DNA of 64,000 nucleotides from the NCBI GenBank assembly GCA_963737265.1, contig CAVTRY010000023.1:288001-352000 (forward strand). The letters are read 5' to 3'. The translations under genes and the position numbers were made by a program. This DNA comes from an uncultured delta proteobacterium. Lineage in GTDB: Bacteria; Myxococcota_A; Polyangia; Fen-1088. The notes under the pieces were generated by a model that was not told the DNA's origin, searched no databases, and saw only the letters and a program-made list of their open reading frames with translations. Of this stretch, positions 3,673 to 47,090 are shown one piece after another (the stretch's first letter is position 1; the number at the start of each line of letters is the position of its first letter).

Positions 3673-5517
3673 TCAGCTCGCTTGCCGCGTGTAGCGCCCG
3701 AATCCGTCCTCGCCCATGAAGCGCTTGAGCAGCTTGGCCTCGGTCTTGCGCAGATCCACGACGATGAGGCCGTCCACGCACTCGCCGAAGGCGGGGTCGA
3801 TGTTGAAGCTGAGCACGCGCGCGCCCAACCGCAAGTAGTAGCGCAACAGCACGGGCATGCCCTTGTTGTCGTCCTCGATTTCGGAAATCAACGAGGAGAC
3901 ATCGTCGTCGTCCTCGACCAGGGCGTCGATGGCCCGGCTTTCCTCGTTGTTGAAGGTCGTGGTAGGCGGCGGATTCTTGGCCTTGACCAAGGCGGCGAAG
4001 GCGGCGTCGCCGCGCGAGCGCTGCAGATACTCGAGCATCAGACGCATCGAGGTCGCCTGGTAGGAACGACTGATGCTGACCGGGCCGAACAACACTTTGT
4101 ATTGGGGATTCCGCACCAAGTACTCGCCGATCCCGCGCCACAGCAAGGCCAGCGCGGTCGGCTTGCGCTGATACTCTTCGCGAATGAAGGAACGGCCCAT
4201 TTCCAATGCGGGTCCCATGCGATCGATGAAGCCGCCGCCAAACTTGAACAGGCTGCTGGTGTAGAGCCCTGCCACGCCTTGCCGGGCCAAGATTTCGTCG
4301 GCGCGACCGATGCGGTAGCTGCCGACGATTTCCTGTTTGGCCTGGTTCCACATGAAGAGGTGCTGGTAGGTCCGATCGAAACCGTCGAGGTCGCAGTCCC
4401 GCCCGGTGCCTTCCTGAGCCGCGCGGAAGGTCTTCTCGCGCAAGCGGCCGATCTCGCGCAGCAAGGTCGGGATCTGCGCCGAAGTCGCGACGTGGACCTG
4501 GTAATCGCCCGAGCGGTGCAGGCAAGACGCCGGCGGCAGGCCACGGATTTCCTCTTCTAGCACGCGCGAAGGTATCGCTTCGATAATCGGCTTTTGCTCG
4601 GCATCCAAAAATGGCCGCGGCGGCACGAAGCGCATGCGCACGCGGCTTTCGCGACGTTGCAGGGCGTAGGTCTTGAAGCGCAGGTATTGAATGAGGGTTT
4701 CGTCCTCGGGATAGCGGTCGGTTTTTTCCTGACCGATGGGCCGGCCGATGCGAACGCGAACGGTCGAGTGTTGGCGCTTGACGATCTCCGAGGGCAACAG
4801 AACTGTGCGGAAGGCCGGATGAAGCAGGCCAGCGAGCTGGAAGACCATGCTGTTCTGACCCTCGAAGAACACTGGCACCACGGTGGCACCGGTCAGCCGC
4901 ACCAGCGCGGCGATGTTGGGATGCCAGGCCGGATCCGAGACGCCATTGCCGAGGCGCAAATGGGACACCGTTCCCGAGGGAAAAGCGCCGAGTGCCGAGC
5001 CCTCGCGCAACCACCTGATGACGGTTCGCATGGAGCCGATATTGGCGCGCGCAGAATCGGGCCGCGCATTGGGATCCACGGGAATGATCCAACTACGCAA
5101 TTCCGGAATACGCGCCAGGATGCGATTGCCAAGAACGCGCACGTCCGGCCGCGCGCGGGTCATGATGTCGCCGAGGATCAAGCCGTCGACGGCGCCGAAC
5201 GGGTGATTGGCGACCACGATGAGCGGGCCATACTTGGGAATCTTCTCCCGATCCTCGTCGCTGACCTCGTAGTCGATGGCCAGCGTGCGCAGGATGGTAG
5301 GAAAGTAGGTTTCTTGTTCATGCGGCAGGATCAGCGATTGGGAGTACAAGCGATTGACCTCCGTTAGGGACAGGACTCGATTAAGGGTGCCTTCAATAAG
5401 GCGAAAGAGCGCGCGCCGGCTGGGACTGCGAATGGCACTGCGAAGATCGATGAGCTCGCGAGGAGATTCGGCGGATGCTTCGTCTGATGACGGGCTGGCT
5501 TCGTTGATGGATTGCAT
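3673..5517 (-). CDS. Fused PlsC-type acyltransferase + GNAT N-acyltransferase (OlsF-like / 'putative hemolysin' family aminolipid synthase)
   Basis: NHPFGAVDG (HX4D) and FPSG in N-half; EIGRLREKTFR, DLDGFD, LEMGRSF, LFGPVSIS in C-half; start taken at MQSINE. Confidence 0.8.
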   Translation of the reverse strand: MQSINEASPSSDEASAESPRELIDLRSAIRSPSRRALFRLIEGTLNRVLSLTEVNRLYSQSLILPHEQETYFPTILRTLAIDYEVSDEDREKIPKYGPLIVVANHPFGAVDGLILGDIMTRARPDVRVLGNRILARIPELRSWIIPVDPNARPDSARANIGSMRTVIRWLREGSALGAFPSGTVSHLRLGNGVSDPAWHPNIAALVRLTGATVVPVFFEGQNSMVFQLAGLLHPAFRTVLLPSEIVKRQHSTVRVRIGRPIGQEKTDRYPEDETLIQYLRFKTYALQRRESRVRMRFVPPRPFLDAEQKPIIEAIPSRVLEEEIRGLPPASCLHRSGDYQVHVATSAQIPTLLREIGRLREKTFRAAQEGTGRDCDLDGFDRTYQHLFMWNQAKQEIVGSYRIGRADEILARQGVAGLYTSSLFKFGGGFIDRMGPALEMGRSFIREEYQRKPTALALLWRGIGEYLVRNPQYKVLFGPVSISRSYQATSMRLMLEYLQRSRGDAAFAALVKAKNPPPTTTFNNEESRAIDALVEDDDDVSSLISEIEDDNKGMPVLLRYYLRLGARVLSFNIDPAFGECVDGLIVVDLRKTEAKLLKRFMGEDGFGRYTRQAS

Positions 5518-33011: not shown

Positions 33012-36000
33012 GTGCCTCCGCCTAACCAACCCAAACCAAACCTCGACGGTCGATTTCGCCTAGAAAGCGAACGCATCGCGGGAGGCATGGGAACGGTCTA
33101 CCGCGCCGTGGATCTGTCCACTGGCGAAACCGTCGCGGTGAAGATCTCGTCCAGCATGGGTTCGCAGCTTGGCGAGCGCTTCCAGCAAGAGGCGAACTGT
33201 CTGGCCGGAATCGCACATCCGGCGATCGTGCGCTACATCGCGCACGGCAAGACCGCCCATGGCGAACACTACCTGGTCATGGAATGGCTCGACGGCGAAA
33301 CCCTGGAGGATCGGCTGGGACGCGGGCCCATCAGCATGGGAGCAAGCGTGCAGATGATCCGCCGCGTCGGCGAAGCCCTCAGCGCCGCCCATAAGCGGGG
33401 CGTCATCCATCGCGACATCAAACCGGCGAACATCTTCTTGCCGGGTAAGGACATGTCCAAGATCAAGCTGCTCGATTTCGGCATCGCGCGGCGGCTGTTC
33501 GACCCGGCGTCGCTGCGTCTGACCCAAGCGGGCTCGGCGCTGGGCACGCCGATGTACATGTCGCCCGAGCAGGCGCAGGGCTCGCTTGACGTCGACGCCC
33601 GCGCCGACATCTTCGCGCTCGGCTGCGTGTTCTTCGAGTGCCTGACCGGGTCGCCGCCCTTCATGGCCGAGAGCACGACGGCCACCCTGGCCAAGGTGGC
33701 CTCCGACGACGACCTGGACGTGGACGCCAAATGCCCCGGCGTGCCCGCGCGCCTCACCGGTCTGCTTGCGCGCATGCTGGCCAAGCGGGCTGAAGAACGA
33801 CCGGCCTCGATGACCGAGGTCTTGGAAGTGTTGGCCACGGTCACCGCCGAGTTGCGCCTGACCGGCGTGTACCCGGTGGTGAAGAAACAGCGCTTCGTTG
33901 TCGCCGACGCGCCGTGGCTGGTGGCCACCGGCGAACGTCGACTGGTGTCGGTCATTGTGGTTTCGTCCGGGAGCCCGTCGCTTCCATCGGCGCACATCGA
34001 CCCGCGCGCCACGGTCGCCGATCTCGGGAACATCCTGGCTCGCGACCTGTCCGACGCGGAATTCGACGACTCCAGGCTCGACGCGGTTTCGCGCGACATC
34101 GCCCCATTCGGTGCGCACATTCAGCGCCTTGCCAACGGCGCTCTGGTCGTGACTCTTACCGGCGACGTCCAAACCACGCCCCTCGATCTCGCCGTCCGGG
34201 TTGCGCGCTGTGGGCTCAAACTGAAAGGCGCGCGGCGAGGATCCTCGCTCGGCATCAGCTTGGGTCACGCCATCAAGCAAGACGAGCTGCGCACCGGCGA
34301 CCTCATCGACAGCGCCGCGCACCTGGTCAGCAACGAGCACGTGGGCTCGATCCACGTCAACGACGAGATCAAGCGCCTGCTCGACGCGCGCTTCGAAATC
34401 GTGACCGAACCGGACGGCCGCGCGCGCTTGCTCTTCGAAAAAGGTCTGCGCGAAGCCCCGCGTACCGTGCTCGGCAAGGAAATCCCCTGCGTCGGCCGCG
34501 ATCGGGAGGTGCGCAATCTGGAGGGATTTTTCGAGGAATGCGTGGACGAGCCCGCGGCCCAGGTGGTGATCGTCAGCGGCTCCGCGGGTTGCGGTAAGTC
34601 GCGTGTCGCCCACGAATTTCTCGAACGCGTGCGCGACGCCGGCCACGCCTTCGAGCTGCTCATCGGCCGCGGCGATCCCATGCGCGCCAACGTATCGCTC
34701 GGCCTGGTGGGGCAAGCCGTGCGCGGCGCCGCCGGCATCAGCGGCACCGAGCCCGACGAGGTTCAGCGCAAACGCCTGTTCGCCCACACCTCGCGTTTCC
34801 TGCCCGCCAAGAGCGCGGCGACCACGGTGGCGTTTCTGGGCGAAATCGCCAACATTCGCTTTGCCGACGACGATCTTCCGCAACTTCGCGCCGCCCGCCG
34901 GGACGCGCGTCTCATGGCCGACCAGACCATGGGCGCGTGGGTGGATTGGCTGGAAGCGGAAGCCGGCCACCACTCGGTGTTGCTGTTTTTCGAGGATCTG
35001 CACTGGGGCGATTTCGCCAGCGCGAACTACGTCGACCAGGCATTGCGCGTCCTGCGCGGAAAGCCGCTCATGGTGCTGGCCCTGGCGCGGCCCGAGGTCG
35101 ACGAGCGTTTCTATGGGCTGTGGCGCGAGCGACACGTGCAGCGCATTTCCCTGCCACCCATGACCACCCGGGCCGCGCAGGAAATGATCCGACGAATCTT
35201 GGGCGATTTGGCGCCCGAAAAGGTGGCGTGGATGGTCGATCACGCCCAGGGCAATCCTTTCTATCTGGAGGAATTGGCGCGCGTCGTGGCCGCGGGCCAG
35301 GATCTCGCGGCGATTCCGGACACCGTGCTCGGCATGGTGCAGGTGCGCTTCGATGCCGTCGGCGAGGGGTCGCGGCTGGTGCTGCGCGCGGCGAGCATCT
35401 TCGGCCAAAGCTTCACCGCCGCCGGCGTGAAAGCGCTGGTCGGCGATATGGACGACGACGATATCGATCGCTGGCTGGAGATTTTGGTCGACAAGGAAAT
35501 CCTGTTTTCCCGGCCCACGGGCGACACGCACCAACTCGTGTTTCGGCACGCACTTCTCTACCAGGCCGCCCACGCCATGCTGTCGCCCAAGGACGAGGTG
35601 GCCGGACACTGCCTGGCCGGCTTCTTCTTGGAAGAGGCCGGCGAGCGCGACGCCATCGTGCTGGCCGACCACTTCGAGAAAGGCCAGAAGCCCGAGCGCG
35701 CCGTGCGCTGGCTGCGCGTCGCCGCCAACCAGGCCATGGAGGTCGACGACCTCAAGTCGGCCCTCGATCGCGTGGAGCGTGGCGTGCGCCTGGGCGCACA
35801 GGGCGACGACTTGGCGGAATTGCACGTGGTCGAGGCGGAGGCGCGTTTCTGGAAGGGTGAATACGCGGAAGCCGAGTGCGCAGCCCGCGAGGCACGGAAG
35901 TGCGAGGATCCCAAGCTGGCACTCAGGGCAATCAGCGCGCTCATTCAAGGACTGGGGCCACAAGCCAAGTACGAAGAAATCGGCCAACTCGACCGGGATC

Positions 36001-36980
36001 TCCAAGAAAGGCCGGCACAACCTGAGCTACTAAAAGCGTGGCTCGAATGCAGGGTGTATTGCACAGGCTATCTCGCCAACGCCGGCCAGTTCGGGGCCAG
36101 AGAACGCACCTTGAAATTGCTGGAGGCGGAGCGAGACAACCTGGATCCATTTCTCATCGGTCGCGCCGAGAGCATGAAGGCGCACCTGGCCCGGACCGAG
36201 GATCGACCGGCAGACTTCGCTTCTGGTTCTAGCAGCGCATCAGAGTTTTTCGAGAGCATTGGTCACAGGCGGGCGGCTACTGAAGCCCTTGGAAACTCCG
36301 GCGGTGCCCTCATGGAACTGGGTCAACTTGAAGAGGCAGAGGCGCAAATGAGAAGACTGTGGGCAATCGCGGAAAGGATGGGCTTGAACCACCTATTGGG
36401 TGGAACACTCTACACTTTGTCGAATATTCTCGCTTACCGAGGATGCCTGGACGAAGCCCGCAGCTTCGGCGAGCGCGCAGTTAAGTGGACCGCTGAAAAT
36501 AGCGATCAGTACTTTGGTAGCTACGCCCAGCTCTATTTGTCCGTAATCGAACACTTGGCGGAGAATTTCCCGGACGCCGAGCAGCATGCGCGGGTGGCAC
36601 TCGAGATGCTTGAGAACAATCCCGCTCTGCGGCCATTTGGCCTGGCTCTGCTAGCCCGATCTCTGCGTGGCCAAGGCTTAATCGTCGAAGCCCTCGCGCA
36701 GGCGCGGGGCGCCTACACTCAACTGGAGGAGCTTGGCCAGGTTCAGGACGGCGAGACCACGATCCGTCTGGCCTTTGCGGAGTGCCTGGTAGCTTCTTCT
36801 GATTTGGCGGCAGCCAGGGAGGTTGTCGAGAAGGCCGTGAAACGCCTTCTCAAGCAGGCCAGCAGCATCGACATTTCCGACTGGCGCCAGGCCTTTCTAA
36901 CCCGAATTCCCGAGCATCTCCGCATTCTCGAATTGGCACGCGAATTGGGAGTTGCCGAATGGAACGAATTGTACAATTAG
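33012..36980 (+). CDS. Ser/Thr kinase - degenerate cyclase - AAA/STAND-like ATPase - TPR protein
   Basis: GGMGTVY, VAVK, HRDIKPAN, DFG, GTPMYMSPE; GSAGCGKS Walker A; FFEDLHW Walker B; GNPFYLEE; helical TPR-like C-terminus. Confidence 0.9.
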   Translation: MPPPNQPKPNLDGRFRLESERIAGGMGTVYRAVDLSTGETVAVKISSSMGSQLGERFQQEANCLAGIAHPAIVRYIAHGKTAHGEHYLVMEWLDGETLEDRLGRGPISMGASVQMIRRVGEALSAAHKRGVIHRDIKPANIFLPGKDMSKIKLLDFGIARRLFDPASLRLTQAGSALGTPMYMSPEQAQGSLDVDARADIFALGCVFFECLTGSPPFMAESTTATLAKVASDDDLDVDAKCPGVPARLTGLLARMLAKRAEERPASMTEVLEVLATVTAELRLTGVYPVVKKQRFVVADAPWLVATGERRLVSVIVVSSGSPSLPSAHIDPRATVADLGNILARDLSDAEFDDSRLDAVSRDIAPFGAHIQRLANGALVVTLTGDVQTTPLDLAVRVARCGLKLKGARRGSSLGISLGHAIKQDELRTGDLIDSAAHLVSNEHVGSIHVNDEIKRLLDARFEIVTEPDGRARLLFEKGLREAPRTVLGKEIPCVGRDREVRNLEGFFEECVDEPAAQVVIVSGSAGCGKSRVAHEFLERVRDAGHAFELLIGRGDPMRANVSLGLVGQAVRGAAGISGTEPDEVQRKRLFAHTSRFLPAKSAATTVAFLGEIANIRFADDDLPQLRAARRDARLMADQTMGAWVDWLEAEAGHHSVLLFFEDLHWGDFASANYVDQALRVLRGKPLMVLALARPEVDERFYGLWRERHVQRISLPPMTTRAAQEMIRRILGDLAPEKVAWMVDHAQGNPFYLEELARVVAAGQDLAAIPDTVLGMVQVRFDAVGEGSRLVLRAASIFGQSFTAAGVKALVGDMDDDDIDRWLEILVDKEILFSRPTGDTHQLVFRHALLYQAAHAMLSPKDEVAGHCLAGFFLEEAGERDAIVLADHFEKGQKPERAVRWLRVAANQAMEVDDLKSALDRVERGVRLGAQGDDLAELHVVEAEARFWKGEYAEAECAAREARKCEDPKLALRAISALIQGLGPQAKYEEIGQLDRDLQERPAQPELLKAWLECRVYCTGYLANAGQFGARERTLKLLEAERDNLDPFLIGRAESMKAHLARTEDRPADFASGSSSASEFFESIGHRRAATEALGNSGGALMELGQLEEAEAQMRRLWAIAERMGLNHLLGGTLYTLSNILAYRGCLDEARSFGERAVKWTAENSDQYFGSYAQLYLSVIEHLAENFPDAEQHARVALEMLENNPALRPFGLALLARSLRGQGLIVEALAQARGAYTQLEELGQVQDGETTIRLAFAECLVASSDLAAAREVVEKAVKRLLKQASSIDISDWRQAFLTRIPEHLRILELARELGVAEWNELYN

Positions 36981-37021
36981 ACAATCACAATTGACCAATT
37001 CGCCTGTGCAATGCCAGAAAT

Positions 37022-37055
37022 GAGAAACGCCGTCCACTAGTGGACGGCGTTTCTC
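37022..37055. terminator. Perfect 34-bp palindrome, bidirectional terminator
   Basis: GAGAAACGCCGTCCACT-AGTGGACGGCGTTTCTC between convergent kinase and peptide genes. Confidence 0.8.
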
Positions 37056-37085
37056 GATCTGATTCACCACAGTCGGGTGAACTAC

Positions 37086-37154
37086 CTAGTGAGGCCAGTG
37101 GCCGCCGCCGCTGCGAACCTTGCTCTTTACCTTGAGACCCTTTTTGTTAGCCAT
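37086..37154 (-). CDS. 22-aa peptide MANKKGLKVKSKVRSGGGHWPH (candidate RiPP precursor / signal peptide)
   Basis: Below ORF-track cutoff; AAAGGAG 7 nt before ATG, CA-rich unstructured leader, terminator downstream. Confidence 0.8.
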   Translation of the reverse strand: MANKKGLKVKSKVRSGGGHWPH

Positions 37155-37238
37155 GATACTGCTCCTTTGTTGTTGGTTGGTTGCTGCACTGACAAGTCCA
37201 TTGGAACGCCGATTCGTGACGGGAACAAGTCAGAAGTG

Positions 37239-37271
37239 TGACGATTCGTCAGACATCTGACGTTTTTGCCA
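37239..37271. promoter_or_regulatory. Paired TGAC-N5-GTCA operator, proximal (second half degenerate)
   Basis: TGACGATTCGTCA-GACATC-TGACGTTTTTGCCA. Confidence 0.5.
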
Positions 37272-37350
37272 CCGAAAGCGCAAAAGACGCCGAAAAACAA
37301 GGCATCTCCGATGCTCGTCGAGCCAAGAAAACGCGTCATCGTCATGAACT

Positions 37351-37382
37351 TGACAGATCGTCAGATATTTGACGATCTGTCA
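37351..37382. promoter_or_regulatory. Paired TGAC-N5-GTCA operator, distal (perfect inverted repeat)
   Basis: TGACAGATCGTCA-GATATT-TGACGATCTGTCA. Confidence 0.6.
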
Positions 37383-37453
37383 TTTCAATGGCTTGGCGGA
37401 CGATGGCGCACGAGTCGTCATGCGGTTGGCACCCGCGGAGTGTCAGAGGCGCA

Positions 37454-37550
37454 AATTCGCCAGAAATCTGGCTCGCCCAACCCCATTTTGGATGCTTCTT
37501 GCGTCCATCCTGGGTGCAGGCATGAATCGACACTCTCCGGGCACGTAGCT
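37454..37550 (+). repeat. 97-bp direct repeat, copy 1: tRNA-Arg promoter plus first 12 nt of the tRNA
   Basis: Aligns to 41792-41889 with few mismatches; ends GGGCACGTAGCT. Confidence 0.9.
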
Positions 37551-37559
37551 GGTCCGGAG

Positions 37560-38783
37560 CTAGTCAGGCTTTCTCGCCCTGAAAAAGCATCGGATCATCT
37601 CGCCCCGTGCGAGTAGCTTCTTCTCCACACCGAACTCTTCCAGCCATTGGCCGACAGCATCCTTGCCAAGGTCTCCCTCGAGGGCGATTCGGTTGCCTTG
37701 CGTGAAGCGCAGGTATTTTTCCACGATTTCGGCAAACCCGGGTGTCCCATCCTCGACGAGGATGTCGCCAAACCCAGCGCAAGACAGCGTGTCGGCCAAG
37801 TGCTTCGCGGTCGCCATAAAGGGGCCGCACACGAGGGCATCGCTGATCCCATGGTCCGTACTTGGACAGGTCGCGTAGAATAGGAACCATCCACCCGGCC
37901 GCAGAACGCGAAAAGCTTCGCTGGCACAGCTCGCGAAATCCGAGATGAAGTAGGAAAAGTCCGCGCCCACCACGGCCACGAATTGCGCGTCGGGCAGGGT
38001 AGTTCCATCGTCCATATCCTCCAGCCGGCTGGCATGGCCGCGAAATCCGCGAACATGGTCCATCCGTTTGGCCCGCGCAGCCATGGTCAGAGAAAGAAGC
38101 GCGACCGCGGAGGGATCCAGCGCAACCACGCTCATGCACAGTTGCGTGGCGATTTCGAATGCCAGACCGCCGCAACCGGCACCGATTTCAAGCACGGCGT
38201 CGGAAAACGCCGGCCTCGACTCCCTGGGGCCAAGCACCTCCAACACCCGAGCAATCTCCTTCGCGCTGAGAAAGCTGTACTGGCCCACATCCGCGCCCAG
38301 AACCTGGTCGTTGACCTTGGACATCCACGGGCTGATCGCGTTGCGAAGGAAAGCACGGTCGAAGAAGCAGCGCGACCGTTTCTCCACATACGCCATGGCG
38401 CGCGCGGCACCATACGCTGCTTCTTGGCCTATCTTCTCCGGTAGCGCACAAAGAGGGAACCACCGCCATTGGACATTCTTCGAGGGATCCAAAGGAGCGG
38501 CTGTACCGGGTGTATCCAACAGCACCACCAAGGAGACGGCGCGTTCTCCGTGGCTCAGACGGTGATCCAGCACCTCGCGATTCCCTTCGAAGGGAAATCC
38601 AGTGTTCTCCAAGAGGCATCGCTTGGCCGCCGCGAGGACGTCCTCGCCATCCCGCAGATCGGTCAGCGGAATATTCCACGGAGGCCGCCGCGCACCCGCG
38701 GGCTGAAACGCCCGGCCGAGCAAGAGATGGCTCTGCCTCAGCACGACGACATCGACCCCTACGCGCCATCCTGATGTAGGCAC
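37560..38783 (-). CDS. Degenerate NUDIX domain fused to class I SAM methyltransferase
   Basis: VGVDVVV..LLLGR..W.IP..GEDVLAAAKRCLLENTG..WRWF; VLEIGAGCGG motif I, FRVLRPGG, AGF; GGAGG RBS. Confidence 0.75.
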   Translation of the reverse strand: MPTSGWRVGVDVVVLRQSHLLLGRAFQPAGARRPPWNIPLTDLRDGEDVLAAAKRCLLENTGFPFEGNREVLDHRLSHGERAVSLVVLLDTPGTAAPLDPSKNVQWRWFPLCALPEKIGQEAAYGAARAMAYVEKRSRCFFDRAFLRNAISPWMSKVNDQVLGADVGQYSFLSAKEIARVLEVLGPRESRPAFSDAVLEIGAGCGGLAFEIATQLCMSVVALDPSAVALLSLTMAARAKRMDHVRGFRGHASRLEDMDDGTTLPDAQFVAVVGADFSYFISDFASCASEAFRVLRPGGWFLFYATCPSTDHGISDALVCGPFMATAKHLADTLSCAGFGDILVEDGTPGFAEIVEKYLRFTQGNRIALEGDLGKDAVGQWLEEFGVEKKLLARGEMIRCFFRARKPD

Positions 38784-38801
38784 ATCGCCCTCCGGCCAGG
38801 T

Positions 38802-40028
38802 CTAGGACATGAACCTTTTGAGGATTGACTTGAGCCCGTCGGCGAAGGCGGAAACCTCATCCAGCGTGTTGTAAATGTAGGCCGAGGCGCGCACTGCCCC
38901 ATGGGGAAGGCTCAAGCGATCGAAGAATGGATGTGCGCAATGGAACCCCGAACGCACCATGATCTTGAAACTATCGCTGAGCATGAGCGCGAGCTCATCC
39001 GGGCCAGGAAGTGGAGACTCGAGCACCAGTTGCGCGAGGGCTAGCCTAGGCTTCGCTGGGGACATGAGGAGACGCACCTTGGGAAGCCGACGAAGTTCCA
39101 CCTCCATTCGGTCGGCCAAGGCTTCCTCGTGCGCGGCAATGGCGTCGAACCCCAGGGCTTCCAGATAGTCCATCGCTGCCGCAAGTCCCACAACGCCGGC
39201 GATGTTGGGAGTCCCGCTCTCGAAACGGAAGGGGATGTTCTTCAAAGTGTAGCCCGAGGTGGTCACCCGTTCTACCGTCCCGCCGCCAAGCGAAAGGGGC
39301 TCGATCGTTTCAAGAAGTTCCCTGCGCCCCCAAAGGACGCCGGTCCCCGTGGGGCCCAACATCTTGTGCCCACTGAAGACGAGGAAATCGCAGCCCAAGC
39401 TGCGAACGTCCAGGGGGATATGGGGCGCGCTCTGGGATGCATCCACGAGCACGAGCACGTCTCGATTCTTCACCACCTTGCAGATATCGGCAATGGGCTC
39501 GATGATTCCCGTGACGTTCGAGGCGTGGCTCAAGACCAATACACGGGGACGATGTTCCTCAACGGCTTTGAGAACCACCTCCGGCCGCAATGGAGCGAGG
39601 GGATCGCGCTCGATGAATCGTAGGCAGGCTTCGCGCATCCACGGCAATAGCAGCGAGTGATGGTCGGTAACGCAAGCCAGAATCCGATCCGACTTCCCGA
39701 GCCCCAACCCTCGCGCAACCAGATTGATCCCTTCCGTGGCGTTGCTCACAAACACGACGCACGCGGGATCGCCGCCCACAAAGCGCGCAGCACGCCGTCG
39801 CGCGCCGTCATAGGCGGAAGATGCCTCCTCGGAAAGGAGGTGCTTGCCCCGATGGATGTTGGCAGTGAATTCCTCGGAATACCGACGTTCGGCCTGAATG
39901 ACCGCGCGCGGCTTCAGGGCGGTTGCCGCGGAATCGAAATACAGAAGGGGACTGCCGTCCACCCGTCGCTCGAGCAGCGGGAAGTCAGCCCGCAGCCTGT
40001 TCGTCCAATCCTCGTCGAGCGATTTCAT
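38802..40028 (-). CDS. SufS/CsdA-like PLP cysteine desulfurase
   Basis: YFDSAATALKP, ANIHRG, HASNVTG, DASQS, SGHKMLGPTG, FESGTPN, RSGFHCAHP. Confidence 0.9.
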   Translation of the reverse strand: MKSLDEDWTNRLRADFPLLERRVDGSPLLYFDSAATALKPRAVIQAERRYSEEFTANIHRGKHLLSEEASSAYDGARRRAARFVGGDPACVVFVSNATEGINLVARGLGLGKSDRILACVTDHHSLLLPWMREACLRFIERDPLAPLRPEVVLKAVEEHRPRVLVLSHASNVTGIIEPIADICKVVKNRDVLVLVDASQSAPHIPLDVRSLGCDFLVFSGHKMLGPTGTGVLWGRRELLETIEPLSLGGGTVERVTTSGYTLKNIPFRFESGTPNIAGVVGLAAAMDYLEALGFDAIAAHEEALADRMEVELRRLPKVRLLMSPAKPRLALAQLVLESPLPGPDELALMLSDSFKIMVRSGFHCAHPFFDRLSLPHGAVRASAYIYNTLDEVSAFADGLKSILKRFMS

Positions 40029-41536
40029 GGAGAACTCGGTGGCTCCGCGAAGTCGCATCGGGTTAGGCTGAACTTCAACGAACCGGGTATCGGATCCAGT
40101 CGAGCGACGACTTTGACTTGCACCTTGGAAATGCCGAACCGCGCTTCCAGTTTGTCGGCCAGCTCCGCGGCGGGAAATGTCCCTTCCTGGCCGAGCGCCG
40201 GGATAGCATCTATCCGAAGGGTCTTGGCATCAGGCTGGTAACAGCTATAGAAGTCCAGATCCTTGGTATCGGCGATGGCTTCATCGAATTGGCGCGTCGT
40301 GACCCAGCGATCTTGCAGATACAGCATGTCCTTGGCCCGGCCGTGCAACACGACGCTTGGGCAGCCATTGAGAAGGCAATTGCAAGGGGAATGGTCGATG
40401 GAGCCAACATCGCCGAGCCGATAGCGCGCGAGCGGCATGGTTCGCGAAGCGGTCGTCGTGATAACGATTGCCCCCAGTTCACCCTCTTCCACGGGTCCTT
40501 CAGGGCCAACGATCTCGGCGACGCACTGTTCCACGCGCACATGCAGCCGGCCGGAAGGGCACTCTTGTCCGATAGCGGTGGCCGCCTCCGTCGCCCCGTA
40601 CCAATCGTAGCTGGCTCTGGAAAACGTATGCTCGATGGCCTTCCTTTGAAAGCGGGTTTGGTACTGATAGCTCGAAGCCAGAAGTCCAACGGAGGGGAGG
40701 GGAATACCGAATTCCTTGGCCCGGCGGACAAACCAATGAAGGTAGACCGGATTGAAGTGCAACATCTCCGGAGCAAAGCGATGAAGTTCTTCGGCGCCCT
40801 TCGCTACGAATTGGCGATCGATGCTAAACAGATCCTCCGTACTGTCGAGGAAAAGCACGTTACCGAGGATTCTCTCTTCGTAGGAAGCCTTGCCTAAGTG
40901 GCAAACCGCCTGGGAACAAATTGGGGTCGTGAAAATCGCAACCTTAGGCGGTTCTCCCCATCGTCTTCCGGTCCATACCTGGGCGTAGCACCCCGGATCC
41001 GTCGCCACTTCATTGCCGAGAATAGCCTGCAATCGTTCGCCGGTGGATCCACTGGTTATAAGAAGAGAGAGATCTTTTCGTTCGAGCCCCGCAGAGAGAT
41101 CCACCTGAGCAGATAGCAAATCGAGAAAGTGCGCTCGTATATCTGCCTTGGTTAGTATCGGGAGCAACCGGATATCTTCCTCACAGTTGATGGCGACGGA
41201 CGTGTAGGCGGCTTGGGCGCGGTAATAGGGTACCTCTTCCTGGATGAAGGCCATGAATTGGCGCAGTTGGAAGAGGGATTGGCGCCGCCGGACCTCGCCC
41301 GGCGTCAGGCCCTCTTTCAGAAGTCCGGCGCTTCGCAGGATGCCCAGTACATCTTCGGCGTTCCGAGCTTCGGGATCGATCGCCATCGTAGCCTCAGGCC
41401 CAAGCAGTAGCTGAGCCGCAGAGCCATCCTCAATGGCGATCTCCACAGTCAAGTCGATTGCGCGATCCGTGAAGACAAGACCTTCGGGCGTTACGCCGGC
41501 GCTGACGCCGCTACGAAGGGGCATCGTTTCAGACAT
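40025..41536 (-). CDS. PaaK-like (phenylacetate-CoA ligase family) adenylating enzyme with N-terminal extension
   Basis: VPYYR, LPILTKADIR, TSGSTG, YGATEA, MPLARYRLGD, GRAKD; stop overlaps desulfurase start (ATGA). Confidence 0.85.
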   Translation of the reverse strand: MSETMPLRSGVSAGVTPEGLVFTDRAIDLTVEIAIEDGSAAQLLLGPEATMAIDPEARNAEDVLGILRSAGLLKEGLTPGEVRRRQSLFQLRQFMAFIQEEVPYYRAQAAYTSVAINCEEDIRLLPILTKADIRAHFLDLLSAQVDLSAGLERKDLSLLITSGSTGERLQAILGNEVATDPGCYAQVWTGRRWGEPPKVAIFTTPICSQAVCHLGKASYEERILGNVLFLDSTEDLFSIDRQFVAKGAEELHRFAPEMLHFNPVYLHWFVRRAKEFGIPLPSVGLLASSYQYQTRFQRKAIEHTFSRASYDWYGATEAATAIGQECPSGRLHVRVEQCVAEIVGPEGPVEEGELGAIVITTTASRTMPLARYRLGDVGSIDHSPCNCLLNGCPSVVLHGRAKDMLYLQDRWVTTRQFDEAIADTKDLDFYSCYQPDAKTLRIDAIPALGQEGTFPAAELADKLEARFGISKVQVKVVARLDPIPGSLKFSLTRCDFAEPPSSP

Positions 41537-41791
41537 GCTTGCTCCACGCCGCAAGGGAGATAGTTATGGTTTGCCTGGTCTTCATGGTGGATTCATCCCA
41601 CGAGACGATTGCCTCGAAATGACGGAGTCGATAGAGATGCAGATGGTGGTCCACGAGGGCCGCATAGGACATGCGGCGGGCAGTGTAGACCGGGTCGATG
41701 GGCGACGCACCGACTTTCGCGGAGCATGCCCGCCCGGCCGCGTAAACCCGCGATCTTGGGCTGGTCCACGACAGCGAGGCGACCGTTGGGG

Positions 41792-41889
41792 AATTCGCCA
41801 GAAATCCGGCTCGCCCACCCACATTTTGGATGCTTCTTGCGTCCATCCTGGGCGCGGGCTATGAATCGGCACTCTCCGGGCACGTAGCT
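41792..41889 (+). repeat. 98-bp direct repeat, copy 2 (intact tRNA-Arg promoter/5' end)
   Basis: Aligns to 37454-37550; contains TTGCGT-N17-TATGAA. Confidence 0.9.
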
Positions 41890-41951
41890 CATCTGGATAG
41901 AGCACCGGCCTCCGAAGCCGGGGGTAGTGGGTTCGAATCCCGCCGCGCCCA
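41878..41951 (+). tRNA. tRNA-Arg(CCG)
   Basis: CCGGC-CTCCGAA-GCCGG anticodon arm, GGTTCGAATCC; acceptor GGGCACG/CGCGCCC with A5-C68 mismatch; no encoded CCA. Confidence 0.9.
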
Positions 41952-42008
41952 CACACGGATCGTCAACACCCATGAAATCCGTGCGCGGATCGATTAGCCT
42001 TCGACCCC

Positions 42009-43112
42009 ATGCGCACCGCCACGGCACACGTGTCACCGTCCGCCACCGGCCAGCTTGAGCTTCGAGGAACCTCCAGTCGGCTCATCGCCCTGTTGCGCGA
42101 AAGACAGAAGCTGCTGGCCAACGTGACGCGAAAGAAGGGCAAGCTGGAAAAGTTGCTCGCGACGCTCAACGCCCAGAGTGCGCAGATGGCGCAGATGGCG
42201 AGCGCCGCCCTGCCACTGATAGAAGAGGGGCAGGAAACTGACCGCGAGATCCACCGGCTTTTCGCCGCCATCTTGGCCAGGCCGGACCTGAAGCGAAAGG
42301 ACCGGAGCCGGATTCAGGATCTTTACCAGATGCTGCAGCGAGAGGGTATCCTGCACCGCACGCCAGCGCACGACGACGACATCCTCGAATTCGACCACGT
42401 GTCTAACCGGGAGTCGGCAGAGTATCCCGCTGGCGAGTTTCCGCCACCGCCCGACCCGACTGGCGAAAGCCCGTCCGCAAGGCGCTCGGCGGGCTCCACC
42501 GTGACGGCCATACGGGATCTCTTTCGCCGCCTCGCGACCGCTATCCACCCCGACAAGGCCCAGGACGCGGACTCTCGGGAGCAGCGAACCGAGGCCATGA
42601 AGGAGGTAACCCGCGCCTACCAGGACGGCGATCTGGCCCGCCTGATCGAGCTAGAGAGGGTGTGGCTCGCGGGTGCGCCCCGGGGCTCGGACAGCGATGA
42701 GGACGAGACCGAGCGGCGCTGTTCCAGCCTCGAGCAAATGAACCGCGAGCTGAAGCGCCAGCTTAAAGAGCTGGACGCCAAAACGCGTGAGCTCAAGCGT
42801 TCGTCCGCCGCCGAGTTCGCGACGGAGCTCGGTCTTGGAAGCAGGCACGGGGATGCTCAGCTCGGCGGCCTGCTGTCCACGCTCGAAAACGAGATCGAGG
42901 CTTTGCGAAAGACGCGCGATTTCGTGCAGTCGTTCGTTGACGGCAAGATCACCTGCGCCCAGTTCATCGCCGGCCCTGCGAACGGGCAAAACACGGATCC
43001 TGACGATGATTTCGATGTGGCCGAGCTCGCCGATTTTCTCGCCGACATCCTCATGCCCTCGGGCTTCGACGCCCCGGGCCCCCGCCCGCCTCGCCGCCGC
43101 CGACGGCGGTGA
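42009..43112 (+). CDS. Coiled-coil protein with internal J-domain
   Basis: IRDLFRRLATAIHPDK..EAMKEVTRAY (HPD motif). Confidence 0.75.
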   Translation: MRTATAHVSPSATGQLELRGTSSRLIALLRERQKLLANVTRKKGKLEKLLATLNAQSAQMAQMASAALPLIEEGQETDREIHRLFAAILARPDLKRKDRSRIQDLYQMLQREGILHRTPAHDDDILEFDHVSNRESAEYPAGEFPPPPDPTGESPSARRSAGSTVTAIRDLFRRLATAIHPDKAQDADSREQRTEAMKEVTRAYQDGDLARLIELERVWLAGAPRGSDSDEDETERRCSSLEQMNRELKRQLKELDAKTRELKRSSAAEFATELGLGSRHGDAQLGGLLSTLENEIEALRKTRDFVQSFVDGKITCAQFIAGPANGQNTDPDDDFDVAELADFLADILMPSGFDAPGPRPPRRRRRR

Positions 43113-43180
43113 AGCCAACCATGGTTCCGACAGTCAGCGTCGGTCGGTCTTGGATCCTGTCGGCGTCGTCATAGGATAAG

Positions 43181-44719
43181 ATGGGCCACATGTCGCGGCC
43201 ACCGTCGCTTTCAAGCTCGGATGTTGTCCGCAGGAATCAAACGAGAACTCTGATCGAGGATAGCGCCAGTTCGGACGATTCGCTTCATGGCATCCGGCTT
43301 TGGCTCACCGTCGTCGAAAAGACCGAAGCCAGGCTGGTGCCCATGCCGGAATCTGGATTCCTGCGCATCGGGCGCGCTGATGACAGCGATATCGTCCTGT
43401 CAAGCCCCTCGGTTTCACGCAACCACGCCGTGCTGGCCGTGACCAACGGAGCCATTTCCATCAGGGACAGTGGCAGCGCCAACGGCACGCGTGTCGGGGG
43501 CAAGCGCGTCCCACCCAACGGGGAAGAGTCGGTCGCTCCGGGCGTCGCCGTTCTCGTCGGCGGCGTCTCGCTCGTCGTGCACGAGCTTGGCAACGCCGTC
43601 AATCCTGGCCAGCTCGATGCGGGAGGCCAGCGCTGGCTTCACGAGAGCGTCCTGGCCGGAGAACACATCCAGGCACTTCGCTCGGACGCGCGAGCGTCCT
43701 CGGGTTCGCCCTCCAGCAGTCGGGAGACGCCCAGCGGCCTTGGCAGCCTCGTAATCCAGTCGGCGGCAATGAAAAAGCTGTTTCAGCTGGTGGACCGAAT
43801 CGCGCCAGGGACCATTCCAGTGCTGCTGTTGGGAGAAACCGGCGTGGGCAAGGAAGTCGTGGCGGCGGCCATCCACGAGCGCTCGCCGCGCAAGCGAAAA
43901 CCCTACCTGCGCCTCAACTGCTCGGCCTTCGCCGAGAACTTGCTCGAAAGCGAGCTCTTCGGCTTCGAGGCTGGGGCCTTCAGCGGCGCGCGGGTGGCCA
44001 AACCGGGTCTGTTTGAAACCGCGAACGGGGGAACGGTTCTCCTCGACGAAATCGGAGAAATGCCGCTTACGATCCAGGCAAAACTGCTGCGCGTAATCGA
44101 GACGCGCGAGGTGATTCCCCTGGGTGGCACGCGCGTGCGCCGGCTGGATGTGCGCTTTCTGTCGGCCACAAACCGCGACCTGGGCAAAAGAATCAATGAG
44201 GGTCTGTTTCGCGAGGATCTCTACTTCCGGCTGAGCGGCGTCACCGTCGTGGTGCCGCCGTTGCGCGAGCGCGCCTCGGAAATCGCGCCCATGGCGCAAC
44301 AGTTCGCGGCCGAGGCGGCGGCGGCGCTGGGCCGGACCGCGACGCCGACCTTGTCGCGCGGGGCGCTGGATTTTCTGGAAAGGCAACCCTGGCCTGGCAA
44401 TGTTCGCGAATTGCGCAATTGTGTCGAACGCGCCGTCTTGCTTTCCGCCACGCACACGCTTTCGGAAGACGATGTCGACCCGAATCTCGATCGCTTGACG
44501 GCGCGAAATACTAGGAAAACTATGGAAGTCGCGTCGAGGACGGTCGAGAAAATCGGCGGGTCAAGCCCCGAGTCCGCGGAGCGCGAGCAGATCGAGGATG
44601 CGTTGGCCGCCTGTGCGGGCAACCAGACGCGCGCCGCGGCCCTTTTAGGCGTGGCACGCAGAACGTTGGTAAGGAAGCTTGCCGAGATGGGCATTCCGCG
44701 CCCGCGTCGGCGCGCATAA
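43181..44719 (+). CDS. FHA-domain sigma54-type enhancer-binding protein
   Basis: IGR..SDI..VSRNHA..DSGSANGT FHA; GETGVGKE, ESELFG, GAFSGA, LDEIGE, WPGNVREL, Fis-type HTH. Confidence 0.92.
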   Translation: MGHMSRPPSLSSSDVVRRNQTRTLIEDSASSDDSLHGIRLWLTVVEKTEARLVPMPESGFLRIGRADDSDIVLSSPSVSRNHAVLAVTNGAISIRDSGSANGTRVGGKRVPPNGEESVAPGVAVLVGGVSLVVHELGNAVNPGQLDAGGQRWLHESVLAGEHIQALRSDARASSGSPSSSRETPSGLGSLVIQSAAMKKLFQLVDRIAPGTIPVLLLGETGVGKEVVAAAIHERSPRKRKPYLRLNCSAFAENLLESELFGFEAGAFSGARVAKPGLFETANGGTVLLDEIGEMPLTIQAKLLRVIETREVIPLGGTRVRRLDVRFLSATNRDLGKRINEGLFREDLYFRLSGVTVVVPPLRERASEIAPMAQQFAAEAAAALGRTATPTLSRGALDFLERQPWPGNVRELRNCVERAVLLSATHTLSEDDVDPNLDRLTARNTRKTMEVASRTVEKIGGSSPESAEREQIEDALAACAGNQTRAAALLGVARRTLVRKLAEMGIPRPRRRA

Positions 44720-44820: not shown

Positions 44821-44866
44821 TAAGCTCTTGAAATCGCTAAAACCCGGCCGTGGCACGTGGGCTGCA
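44821..44866 (+). promoter_or_regulatory. IHF-like site plus sigma54 promoter
   Basis: TAAGCTCTTGAAA at 44821; TGGCAC-GTGGG-CTGCA at 44851-44866. Confidence 0.5.
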
Positions 44867-45122: not shown

Positions 45123-47090
45123 GTGATCTTTCTGCTGCTGCTTTTCGTTGCGGGGCGGTGCCTCGTCCCGATGGACGAAACCGATCTGTTTTTCAACCTG
45201 AGGCTGGGCGAGATCGTGCTCGGCACCGGCCAGGTTGCGACGGAGAACCTGCTTTCGTTCACCCATCCTGCCGCCACTGACATCAACCTGGCGTGGCTGT
45301 TTCAAATCGTCCTGGCGCTGGCTCATCGCGCGGCTTCGATCCCCGGCACGGTGCTGCTCAAGACGGCGTTCGTGGTCGCCACCTGGGCGGTTCTGTTTCG
45401 AGTCGCCGTCAGGCGCGGAGCCCATCCTGCGCTGGCGGCCTTGGCGCTGGCGCTTTCGGCGTGGGCCGCCGAGCCCCGCTTCGTCGAGCGGCCGCATCTC
45501 GTGACGTTCCTCGGTTTGGCCCTGGTCCTGCTGGCGGTGGAGCGCGCGGAAAGCAAGCAGCCGCACATGCTGTGGTGGCTCGTACTGTGCGGCCTGGTGT
45601 GGGCCAACGCCAATTCGTGTTTTTTTCTAGCGCCGACCGTGTTGCTGTTCTACGCGCTGGGCGCGCGTCTGGATGGGCGCAGCGCGGACGCACGGTGCGC
45701 GCTGCTGGCGGCACTGGCCTTCATCCCCTTCATGTTCGCCACACCGTCGGGCTTCCGCTGTCTCGACTACATCGCCAATCACTTCCGCATGCCGTATCTG
45801 CGTCCGCTGCAGGAATACCGGCACGCGCGCTGGCCGCTCGACGGACCCTTCTTTTTCCTGGCCGCCGGGCTGCTACTCGCGCGTCTTCTGCCGCTGGCCG
45901 TGCGCCGGCTGCCCGTCGCATCCCCGTTGCCTTGGCGTGTCCTTTTGCCGTGCGCGCTGCTTGGCTTGCTGGGCTGCCTGCGCATCCGCTTCGTCGCCGA
46001 GTTCGCCATGCTGGCCGGCCCGGCGCTGGCGGTGGCGACCTCGCGCACGGTGCCGGCCTTGCCGGAACGCTGGCCGCGCTGGCTGGCGGGCGCTTTGTTG
46101 CTTGGCCTGACCATGGCGCCACGTCTGGAGGCGGTGGCGCAAGGCGGACGTTTTCTCGACATCGGCATGGAGCCGGATCTCGTCCCGCTCGCGGCCATCG
46201 AGTTCGCCGAGAGGCACGGCCTGCGGGATCGCATGTACAACGATCTGGAGGTCGGCTCGTACCTGACCTGGCGCGGTTGGCCGAGGTACCGCGTGTTTCA
46301 GGATCCGCGCATCAACGGCTATCCCGAGGCCTTTCACGCCGTGCTTCGCCGCTCGGATCTCGCGCGCCCGGAGTGGCAGAGTTTTCTCGACGGCTTCGGC
46401 GTCGCGTCGGCGCTCATCACCTTTCCTTCGGTCAATCCACGCGGCGCGCTCTTCGATCCCGAAAAGTGGGCGCTGGTGTACCGTGCCAACGACGGCTTGG
46501 TCTTCGCGCGCCGGCCGATACGCGAAGACTTGTCGGAGATCCCGCTGTCGTTTTCCTATTTGGCGGCGACGGGCCTGACGCCAATTCCGCTGCCACGACC
46601 ACCGCGCGAAGCAAGCGTCTCCACGTGCGAATGGCAGCGGCGACTGGGGGACTACTATCGATCCACGGGCGACGACACGACGGCGCTTCATCGCTACGGG
46701 TTGGCACTGGCCGCGAAAGCGGAACCGTCATGCTCCGCGGACGCCCGCGCTGCGGCGGGCGCGCTCGCCTTGCAGCTTGGCGACCCCGCCACGGCGGTGG
46801 GCTTGCTTGAGGGCGCGACTGGCCTCGTCGCCCGAACCAATAATGGCTTTGCCCTGCTGGGTGTCGGCCGGAGCGAAGCCGCCCTGGCCGATTTCGACGG
46901 CGTGCTACGTGACGATGCCGGCAACGACGAAGCGACCTTCGGCCGCGGGCTGTCTCTGGTCGCTCTTGGTCGGGGTGCCGAGGCCGCGACCATGTTCGAA
47001 GCCCTGCTGGCGCGCTCGCCCAACCATGTGTCGGCAAAGGCGGCGCGGCAGCAGCTTGCGCGCCTGCGCGGAGGTGAGATCCATCCGTGA
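45123..47090 (+). CDS. Multi-pass GT-C-like membrane protein with C-terminal TPR
   Basis: ETDLFFNLRLGE loop, ERPHLVT, WANAN, VFQDPR; TPR-like tail; true start may be slightly different. Confidence 0.65.
   Translation: MIFLLLLFVAGRCLVPMDETDLFFNLRLGEIVLGTGQVATENLLSFTHPAATDINLAWLFQIVLALAHRAASIPGTVLLKTAFVVATWAVLFRVAVRRGAHPALAALALALSAWAAEPRFVERPHLVTFLGLALVLLAVERAESKQPHMLWWLVLCGLVWANANSCFFLAPTVLLFYALGARLDGRSADARCALLAALAFIPFMFATPSGFRCLDYIANHFRMPYLRPLQEYRHARWPLDGPFFFLAAGLLLARLLPLAVRRLPVASPLPWRVLLPCALLGLLGCLRIRFVAEFAMLAGPALAVATSRTVPALPERWPRWLAGALLLGLTMAPRLEAVAQGGRFLDIGMEPDLVPLAAIEFAERHGLRDRMYNDLEVGSYLTWRGWPRYRVFQDPRINGYPEAFHAVLRRSDLARPEWQSFLDGFGVASALITFPSVNPRGALFDPEKWALVYRANDGLVFARRPIREDLSEIPLSFSYLAATGLTPIPLPRPPREASVSTCEWQRRLGDYYRSTGDDTTALHRYGLALAAKAEPSCSADARAAAGALALQLGDPATAVGLLEGATGLVARTNNGFALLGVGRSEAALADFDGVLRDDAGNDEATFGRGLSLVALGRGAEAATMFEALLARSPNHVSAKAARQQLARLRGGEIHP

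Follow-up and report, generated by a model that had tools for sequence, protein, structure and literature searches.

In a 64,000-nt stretch of DNA from an uncultured delta proteobacterium (contig CAVTRY010000023.1, positions 288,001–352,000 of the forward strand; hereafter, the window), a gene for a cytoplasmic Ser/Thr kinase with a STAND ATPase and a C-terminal TPR domain converges on a very small gene that encodes a peptide of 22 amino acids (MANKKGLKVKSKVRSGGGHWPH). We consider it somewhat better than an even bet—a probability of about 0.55—that the two form a cognate receptor–ligand pair, in which the variable tail of the peptide would be read by the TPR sensor of the kinase. That the two genes are adjacent far more often than expected by chance is strongly supported, and genome comparisons support the view that they form a conserved unit. 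Furthermore, the TPR sensor and the adjoining peptide tail form a mosaic, pherotype-like hypervariable block. In the following, G numbers denote genomes of relatives (G000 being the window's own genome, 6.55 Mb) and L numbers denote peptide loci; coordinates of all features are collected in Table 1.

The association of peptide and kinase extends well beyond the window. A homologous, convergent peptide gene accompanies the kinases of G002, G008, G010 (two copies), G012, and G011:C379. A profile built from seven peptides and run against 401 genomes of the class returned clear matches only in the window's genus and in a second genus of its family, 8/8 sampled genomes of which had the peptide; two further matches were weak (E 0.0025 and 0.0085) and both lay within long open reading frames (ORFs). 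All nine loci newly found by the profile placed the peptide gene beside a kinase C-terminus. When one genome each of 185,579 species was scanned with a degenerate DNA pattern, 17 stretches emerged, every one titled as a metagenome-assembled genome of uncultured Myxococcales, of a delta-proteobacterium or of a 'Proteobacteria bacterium'; the same pattern picked out 52 stretches from metagenome contigs, five of them chance matches inside long ORFs. This amounted to 66 peptide-type matches, of which 64 were complete ORFs. Where at least 300 nt of downstream sequence was available, a kinase-family C-terminus converged on the peptide gene within 600 nt in 55 of 57 loci, although these scans overlap with the G-numbered genomes and many loci come from close relatives, so that the counts overstate the number of independent events. 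Kinases of the two genera share only ~50–55% identity, yet the pairing is seen in both, and the pair has been kept together in differing genomic flanks and through tandem duplications. We found no description of such a peptide/STAND-kinase pair in the open-access literature.

An earlier note on this DNA had named the kinase, the peptide gene and an FHA-domain activator beyond an enzyme cassette, all of which we recovered where it had placed them; the genomic co-occurrence of kinase and peptide that it proposed to look for is borne out by the counts above, with kinase orthologues mostly flanked by a peptide gene. The note had the two genes meeting head-to-head, which is to be corrected: they are arranged tail-to-tail, with 105 nt between their stop codons. 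The palindrome that it saw between them is real and folds into a hairpin with a 15-bp stem and a 4-nt loop (−32.4 kcal/mol; z −5.95; none of 200 shuffled sequences equally stable), which we annotate as a shared bidirectional terminator. A simple terminator scan misses this hairpin because it lacks a long T run. At the same position, a GC-rich inverted repeat was seen by eye in 16/16 loci viewed, the folding itself having been done for the window's hairpin.

Several features mark the peptide ORF as a genuine gene. It is preceded, at a distance of 7 nt, by the ribosome-binding site AAGGAG. The first 16 residues—the leader—are nearly invariant among peptides, and in a codon alignment the leader carries synonymous changes, including AGC versus TCN (that is, AGY/TCN) serine codons, as well as AAG versus CGA; the synonymous and serine-codon changes argue for selection at the coding level. 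The peptide as a whole is hydrophilic and basic, with a mean hydropathy of −1.08, six Lys/Arg residues and no acidic or hydrophobic stretch. An exact look-up of four of the peptides in a collection of 15 billion proteins found none of them: gene callers miss these ORFs, and the peptide family is therefore invisible in present annotation. A tblastn search for paralogues within the own genome returned the window copy only. On the metagenome contig L187, one convergent kinase faces two tandem peptide genes (4080-4149 and 4535-4604), whose tails are AGRWPR and GIRWPH.

The 1322-residue kinase combines a Hanks-type kinase domain with a STAND ATPase and a TPR end. Pfam places a Pkinase domain at residues 24-271 (E 7.6e-44), AAA_16 at residues 493-688 (E 4.4e-13) and, over residues 1079-1278, matches to TPR_12, TPR_MalT and TPR_19. 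The signature of Hanks-type Ser/Thr kinases is complete, with the catalytic motifs VAVK at 41, HRDIKP at 133, DFG at 155 and SPE at 184, as is the Walker A motif of the ATPase (GSAGCGKS, residue 523); the layout is thus that of STAND proteins, namely a P-loop NTPase core followed by C-terminal repeats, here modelled as a TPR superhelix. The NCBIfam model of MalT itself scored 18.2 against a cut-off of 537. No hydrophobic or membrane segment was found in the kinase sequence. Orthologues within the window's genus are 64-75% identical. G000 also holds a 68%-identical paralogue (G000:C11:553442-556747), probably a decaying copy, which is interrupted by an in-frame TGA and lacks a peptide gene on its 3′ side.

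Variation within the pair is concentrated at the two gene ends that face each other. The last six residues of the peptide are hypervariable, with 42 different tails among 46 distinct peptides, around a core of an aromatic residue (mostly W or F) at position −3 and a proline at −2. In the kinase, column entropy climbs from about residue 963 onwards, and close relatives with 93-100% identity in the core agree in only 62-78% of the last ~360 residues. This contrast recurs in individual comparisons: 100% in the core versus 78% in the sensor for L133 and L165, 99% versus 69% for L127 and L163, 97% versus 62% for G002 and G008, and 97% versus 69% even for the two copies within G010. L135 and L161, whose tails differ by a single F/Y exchange, have 97% identical cores and 94% identical sensors. 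At the nucleotide level, G000 and L181 share 90-98% identity in the core and 64-80% over the last ~1.1 kb, before identity returns to 87% at the terminator and the leader. Synonymous divergence (dS) tells the same story, being 0.6-2.5 in the sensor versus 0.02-0.37 in the core of the compared pairs, i.e., raised 4- to 30-fold. In the 74 comparisons whose cores were at least 90% identical, mean sensor identity was 85% where the tails differed at 0-1 positions and 68-70% where they differed at 2-4.

The hypervariable region falls into a domain whose predicted fold is of a peptide-binding type. Modelled from a 31-sequence alignment, residues 828-1322 form a continuous, all-helical repeat superhelix with a predicted local distance difference test (pLDDT) value of 92.2 and a predicted template modelling (pTM) score of 0.88. 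Foldseek returned generic TPR proteins only, with low TM scores, and a PDB sequence search with kinase residues 289-1322 gave no match. In VIA-align, with the reservation that helical repeats give high Z scores by nature, the best matches were an APC subunit (Z 28.0) and APPBP2 in complex with a C-terminal RxxGP degron (Z 27.8, root-mean-square deviation 3.6, 405 residues aligned), followed by a phage Rap protein with its bound peptide (Z 24.0), MalT domain III (Z 23.8, root-mean-square deviation 3.6 over 332 residues), NprR-NprX (Z 20.2), AimR, RapI and PlcR-PapR (Z 17-20) and the structure of PH0952 (Z 14.4). The model shows a predicted sensor fold of the peptide-binding type; function does not follow from fold.

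How might such a pair work? In the arrangement that we favor, the tail—three variable residues, an aromatic residue, a proline and one further variable residue—would be read by the C-terminal TPR superhelix, which would act as the sensor of the STAND-type ATPase. Closed and oligomeric forms of the ATPase would interconvert in response to the peptide, and this switch would determine how active the N-terminal Ser/Thr kinase is. All alleles share the basic leader, which would serve a common role, e.g., stability, processing or a second contact, and tail and sensor would diversify as one block, conferring differing specificities on strains and on duplicated copies within a genome. The likely output would be phospho-threonine signaling to FHA-domain proteins, such as the activator EBP-2 (see below) that stands beside the module in many relatives; the three enzymes of the nearby cassette would take no part. 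The reality of the genes, their conserved pairing, the variable tail next to a hypervariable sensor, the fold and the insertion are shown by the analysis; that the tail binds, how this would act on the kinase, which FHA protein would be the target and whether the peptide works inside the cell or after export are inferences.

One alternative is that kinase and peptide are neighbors by inherited synteny and do not interact, the basic peptide having a role of its own, e.g., in binding nucleic acids or the ribosome, and merely sharing a terminator with the kinase gene. The highly basic nature of the peptide would suit such a role, most of the evidence comes from two related genera whose kinship inflates the counts, and there are kinases lacking a peptide as well as two peptides lacking a convergent kinase. 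Nevertheless, the pair stays together across changing flanks and tandem duplications, it is precisely the 3′ end of the kinase gene facing the peptide gene, and precisely the tail of the peptide, that vary, and 42 tails among 46 peptides are not expected of a small housekeeping protein. We therefore regard mere synteny as very improbable.

Whether an FHA-domain activator belongs to the module depends on which activator is meant. The enhancer-binding protein (EBP) in the window, EBP-1, has FHA, Sigma54_activat (E 8.2e-63), AAA_lid_14 and HTH_8 (E 1.6e-13) domains and, with GAFSGA at the position of the GAFTGA loop, the features of a sigma-54 activator. It adjoins the module in G000, L181 and L184 only; in the latter two, it is 86-87% identical and lies 548-571 nt from the peptide gene. 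Orthologues (67-70% identity) in G002, G008, G010 and G001 form a conserved block with counterparts of the next two window genes, and this block is found 256 kb from the kinase in G002 and on other contigs in G008 and G010. G001 has the block and no kinase orthologue; conversely, G012 has kinase and peptide and no EBP-1 orthologue. In sum, the EBP-1 orthologue lies elsewhere in four of the seven other genomes of the genus that possess one, and its adjacency to the module in G000, directly past a tRNA hotspot, may be accidental. Between EBP-1 and the following gene, which encodes a TPR protein (45123-47090), lies TGGCACGTGGGCTGC, which has one mismatch to the sigma-54 consensus TGGCAC-N5-TTGC. 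The window holds seven sites of this kind where 5.5 are expected, which is at chance level, and the one at 44851, downstream of EBP-1, is the only well-placed one; although the site is not significant, it fits a view of EBP-1 as serving its own downstream genes.

A closer association is seen for another FHA activator, EBP-2, which shares 35% identity with EBP-1 and is conserved at 72% identity between the two genera. Each of the eight EBP-2 orthologues stands beside a kinase of this family; among 22 more remote homologues, one does. EBP-2 is found directly upstream of the peptide gene, on the same strand, in many second-genus loci, and in other loci it converges on a second, tandem copy of the kinase gene. 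When loci with at least 1 kb of upstream sequence were considered, 15 of 56 had an FHA activator (12 EBP-2 and three EBP-1); by our reading of the listings, the 6.55-Mb genome of the window encodes about six FHA activators in total. By its distribution, EBP-2 is a genuine companion of the kinase–peptide module, and a link between EBP-1 and the module in G000 is doubtful. The idea of the earlier note that an FHA activator belongs to the circuit thus holds in part: activators recur near the peptide, but mostly as EBP-2, and not as the EBP-1 that the note had in view.

A number of observations weigh against the receptor–ligand interpretation, or at least against its simplest form. Two loci, L155 and L178, lack a convergent kinase and have one only divergently upstream, and two kinases of the clade, G011:C41 and the disrupted G000:C11 copy, lack a peptide; the same holds true for two paralogues of 59% identity, G010:C7 and G002:C39. 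For the covariation of peptide core and TPR domain that the earlier note proposed to look for, the signal is modest (partial Mantel r 0.20, permutation p ~0.03), and the related sequences are not independent. Moreover, L131 and L142 have the same tail and sensors of only 71% identity. GGNWPK, a tail shared by the two genera, goes with sensors that are 45-47% identical, no closer than the average of 46.8% between the genera; the link between tail and similarity of the whole domain is accordingly a loose one. At 0.10-0.27, the dN/dS ratio of the sensor gives no average sign of positive selection, and together with the high dS it argues for old alleles moved by recombination rather than for a recent burst of substitution. 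Phage pressure, gene conversion among tandem paralogues or some other process could also account for the hypervariability of the sensor. The tendency of helical repeats to score highly tempers the structural matches, too. As to the output, G000 has no EBP-2 orthologue, and EBP-2 carries GAHSQA in the place of GAFTGA, the loop with which activators touch sigma-54, as seen at L091:6420-7784 (G067), L033:7652-9127 (G002) and L034:4665-6068 (G008); judging by this motif, EBP-2 may act by a route other than sigma-54.

The region upstream of the peptide gene is conserved in its own right. In 47 of 50 distinct upstream regions, an anchor motif is located 72-82 nt before the ATG, following two GTCA-N6-TGAC palindromes spaced 19 bp apart. 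The 6.55-Mb genome contains just three tandem pairs of this kind, two of them upstream of the peptide gene. The third (G000:C18:88752-88784) lies ~110 nt 5′ of an operon encoding a Ser/Thr kinase and a sigma-54 activator (C18:85076-88641), which suggests that the peptide gene and this operon may share a regulator. A GTCA-N6-TGAC site was found within 4 kb of 12 of 39 activator genes; several of these sites sit at a fixed offset within coding sequence, and this test of proximity is therefore confounded. A conserved −24/−12 element of the form GG-N10-GC was sought in 16 and then in 50 aligned upstream regions and was not found; a conserved block, TTGACTTGC...TGC, has an A in place of the −24 GG in nearly all loci. 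A simple sigma-70 scan revealed no promoter-like site on the peptide strand upstream of the gene.

These data bear on the complete circuit, the loop of the earlier note spelled out in full, in which a short C-terminal pheromone, cut from the exported peptide, would be taken up again and activate the kinase, which would in turn activate the FHA activator; the latter would drive the peptide gene, giving an autoinducing, strain-specific quorum or kin signal. The old, diverged alleles spanning receptor domain and tail do resemble the pherotype loci agr, comQXP and PlcR-PapR, a conserved leader could suit a shared export or processing machine, the sensor folds like RRNPP receptors, and FHA activators are recurrent neighbors. 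Yet, the links of the chain fare less well one by one. The activator's control over the peptide gene finds no counterpart in the upstream region, which has no conserved GG-N10-GC and whose conserved sites are retained in G012, a genome without an orthologue of either activator, and EBP-1 itself is located elsewhere in most of the genomes that have it. Cleavage to an 'HWPH' peptide, or export, is likewise not supported: the peptide has no signal-like segment, no transporter or protease recurs in its neighborhoods, and the kinase has no membrane segment. According to PMC10075063, the export signal of RRNPP propeptides (for Sec or PptAB) combines a basic N-terminus with a hydrophobic stretch behind it, whereas the present peptide is hydrophilic and basic. 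Consequently, we consider the full circuit unlikely.

A more restricted version of this idea, i.e., strain-specific peptide 'pherotypes' that are read through the TPRs by a cytoplasmic STAND Ser/Thr kinase and that constitute a self/non-self or quorum system with phospho-threonine/FHA output, appears a little less unlikely, yet still doubtful. The mosaic polymorphism of the aligned loci would favor a social signal. The combination of a hydrophilic, basic peptide, the absence of a linked transporter or protease and a cytoplasmic receptor instead favors an internal ligand, or insulation between duplicated pairs. If the pherotype interpretation were true, it would add a peptide system in Gram-negative, social Myxococcales that is mechanistically unlike both RRNPP and two-component peptide sensing.

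Table 1 Features of the kinase–peptide region and its surroundings (window coordinates)
Feature	Position	Strand	Basis
Gene of the 1322-aa cytoplasmic kinase (Ser/Thr kinase, STAND ATPase and TPR domains)	33012..36980	+	Pfam, motifs
Putative hypervariable TPR sensor of the kinase, ~residues 960-1290	35889..36881	+	Entropy, identity, dS, model
Shared bidirectional terminator hairpin between kinase and peptide stops	37022..37055	.	Folding
22-aa peptide gene, stop codon included	37086..37154	-	Ribosome-binding site, homologues, codon variation
Tandem GTCA-N6-TGAC palindromes, 19 bp apart, ~-75 to -107 from peptide ATG	37229..37261	.	Motif scan
Second tandem GTCA-N6-TGAC pair	37341..37373	.	Motif scan; L181 counterparts at -217 and -198
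Left 105-nt direct repeat	37454..37558	.	Repeat comparison
Inserted three-gene cassette, outside the module	37560..41554	-	Absence in relatives, repeats
Nudix-methyltransferase fusion	37560-38783	-	Pfam/NCBIfam
SufS-like pyridoxal-phosphate enzyme	38802-40058	-	Pfam/NCBIfam
PaaK-like ligase (adenylating enzyme)	40025-41554	-	Pfam/NCBIfam
Right direct repeat, takes in first 20 nt of tRNA-Arg	41792..41897	.	Repeat comparison
tRNA-Arg(CCG)	41878..41952	+	ARAGORN
DnaJ-like gene	42009..43112	+	Weak DnaJ match (Pfam)
FHA/sigma-54 activator EBP-1	43181..44719	+	Pfam, motif
Sigma-54-like site between EBP-1 and next gene	44851..44865	+	Consensus scan

Between the peptide gene and EBP-1, three oppositely oriented enzyme genes invite the thought of a biosynthetic cluster. 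A role for them is not supported: the cassette is a later insertion at the tRNA-Arg and is unrelated to the kinase–peptide module. The segment of 4338 bp in G000 is bounded by direct repeats of two families, 93% and 89% identical and spaced 4338-4339 nt apart. L181 and L184, the nearest relatives (EBP-1 86-87% and kinase core ~94-95% identical), run from the region upstream of the peptide through tRNA-Arg directly to EBP-1, with no cassette in between. Among 41 relatives, the PaaK-like ligase has a single orthologue (51% identity) in G011, where contig C31 holds the sole orthologous copy of the three-gene cassette, separate from any peptide gene and followed by an insertion sequence (IS) remnant. 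There is no integrase inside the 4.3-kb islet. The G+C content is 0.53-0.62 over window positions 36000-41500, which take in the 3′ end of the kinase gene, the peptide region and the cassette, and 0.63-0.69 in the flanks.

The tRNA-Arg(CCG) gene lies upstream of the peptide in every checked locus of the window's genus and was seen beside it in L033-L036, L181, L184, L123, L140 and L163. Past it, relatives carry variable islands with integrase, IS, PIN and AAA_14 genes. Phage-type integrase genes, whole or fragmentary, lie by this tRNA at L034:13291-14223 and L190:4013-5275, with homologues in L123, L137 and L157, and mark it as a hotspot of integration. In L181 and L184, the 5′ flank of EBP-1 matches the window only up to position 43119, ~30 nt from the tRNA match, and window positions 41955-43118, including the DnaJ-like gene, therefore have no counterpart there. 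By this comparison, the DnaJ-like gene is a second insertion relative to these two loci.

With the cassette set aside, the view of the peptide as a precursor of a ribosomally synthesized and post-translationally modified peptide (RiPP)—its leader guiding a maturase encoded elsewhere, the kinase acting in regulation or immunity and the cassette supplying tailoring enzymes in this genome—loses much of its ground. The layout of leader and variable core would suit a RiPP, and the best NCBIfam match of the kinase, 'TOMM system kinase/cyclase fusion protein' (TIGR03903; residues 414-909, E 6.7e-87), is by its name part of a peptide natural-product system. However, its score of 292.5 is far under the cut-off of 705.75. 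In seven loci of the second genus, a gene of 699 aa with the CxxxCxxC motif of radical-SAM enzymes adjoins the peptide, which would provide a maturase, but G000 has no homologue of it (best hit 25% identity, E 3e-7), and a gene limited to seven loci was rejected as a general maturase. (The gene, of ~700 aa at L165:2977-5073 on the minus strand and in six other second-genus loci, lies beside the peptide or past a second kinase.) No enzyme is a general neighbor of the peptide, wide recurrence being limited to the kinase family (48 loci) and FHA activators (12 loci). Finally, the cassette is absent from L181 and L184, its only other copy lacks the peptide, and a RiPP would leave the hypervariability of the TPR end next to the variable tail unexplained. 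We thus hold a natural product to be quite unlikely. Recognizing the cassette as a tRNA-targeted insertion guards against a false RiPP assignment that its position beside the peptide makes tempting.

About equally improbable, in our estimation, is a role in defense or surveillance akin to NLRs, with the TPR end diversifying under pressure from phages or competitors and the peptide serving as autoinhibitor, decoy or guardee. A STAND ATPase with a hypervariable C-terminal repeat sensor would be apt for this function; the module borders on a tRNA hotspot near which relatives carry integrase, IS, PIN and AAA_14 genes, and the kinase domain does match the models of defense kinases. These matches are, however, far under the NCBIfam cut-offs (MAD6, 148.6 versus 460; PglW, 109.6 versus 990). 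In G006 and G012, moreover, the kinase resides in conserved chromosomal synteny with housekeeping-type genes, and no known defense partner genes recurred in the neighborhoods, for which no PADLOC scan was made.

We return to the idea of a peptide read by the kinase beside which it is encoded. Taken together, the conservation and apparent co-diversification of peptide and kinase in uncultured soil myxobacteria suggest a new ligand–receptor pair. We know of no established natural ligand of a STAND Ser/Thr kinase; the pairing offers a candidate ligand encoded next door, along with dozens of natural allele pairs with which to address specificity. Should the tail bind the sensor, this would be the first peptide-gated STAND kinase, and possibly a kin-recognition code in uncultured peat and soil myxobacteria.

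Among known systems, adjacent pairs of a small peptide and a TPR receptor are a communication device of Firmicutes and their phages, and the PlcR/PapR system has strain-specific variants of peptide and receptor. Like the RRNPP systems (Rap/Phr, NprR/NprX, PlcR/PapR and AimR/AimP), the present module has a small peptide gene directly beside the gene of a cytoplasmic TPR receptor, appears to place the information in the C-terminal residues of the peptide, and has a sensor whose model matches Rap, NprR, AimR and PlcR at Z 17-24. It differs in its host, which belongs to Myxococcales rather than to Firmicutes or their phages, and in its receptor, which comprises 1322 aa with a kinase and a STAND ATPase, as opposed to the ~250-500 aa with DNA-binding or phosphatase output of the RRNPP receptors. 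The basic-then-hydrophobic export signal is missing from the peptide, too, and we found no sequence-level RRNPP membership.

The sharply bounded hypervariable block over signal peptide and sensing part, with conserved flanks and old alleles of high dS, is reminiscent of agr (AgrB/D/C) and comQXP. Those systems, however, rely on membrane histidine kinases and on peptides that are modified and exported by the products of linked genes, whereas here no such genes are linked and the putative receptor is a cytoplasmic Ser/Thr kinase. The TOMM kinase/cyclase fusions (TIGR03903) are similar in overall size and accompany small peptide genes, but the kinase falls short of the family cut-off, and neither a cyclodehydratase nor an NHLP-type precursor is encoded nearby.

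On the output side, a Hanks kinase encoded beside an FHA activator of the sigma-54 type parallels the signaling from Ser/Thr kinases to FHA partners, including the FHA-type enhancer-binding proteins of Myxococcus, with the difference that the activator nearby in G000 belongs to another orthogroup and that its adjacency is maybe accidental. To our knowledge, no cognate pair of kinase and FHA activator with a peptide ligand is known. In its architecture, the kinase comes close to MalT and to PH0952 of Pyrococcus, where the inducer is bound by a helical-repeat sensor that likewise comes after an ATPase core. Unlike in these proteins, the effector is a Hanks-type kinase instead of a DNA-binding domain, and the proposed inducer would be a peptide encoded by the neighboring gene.

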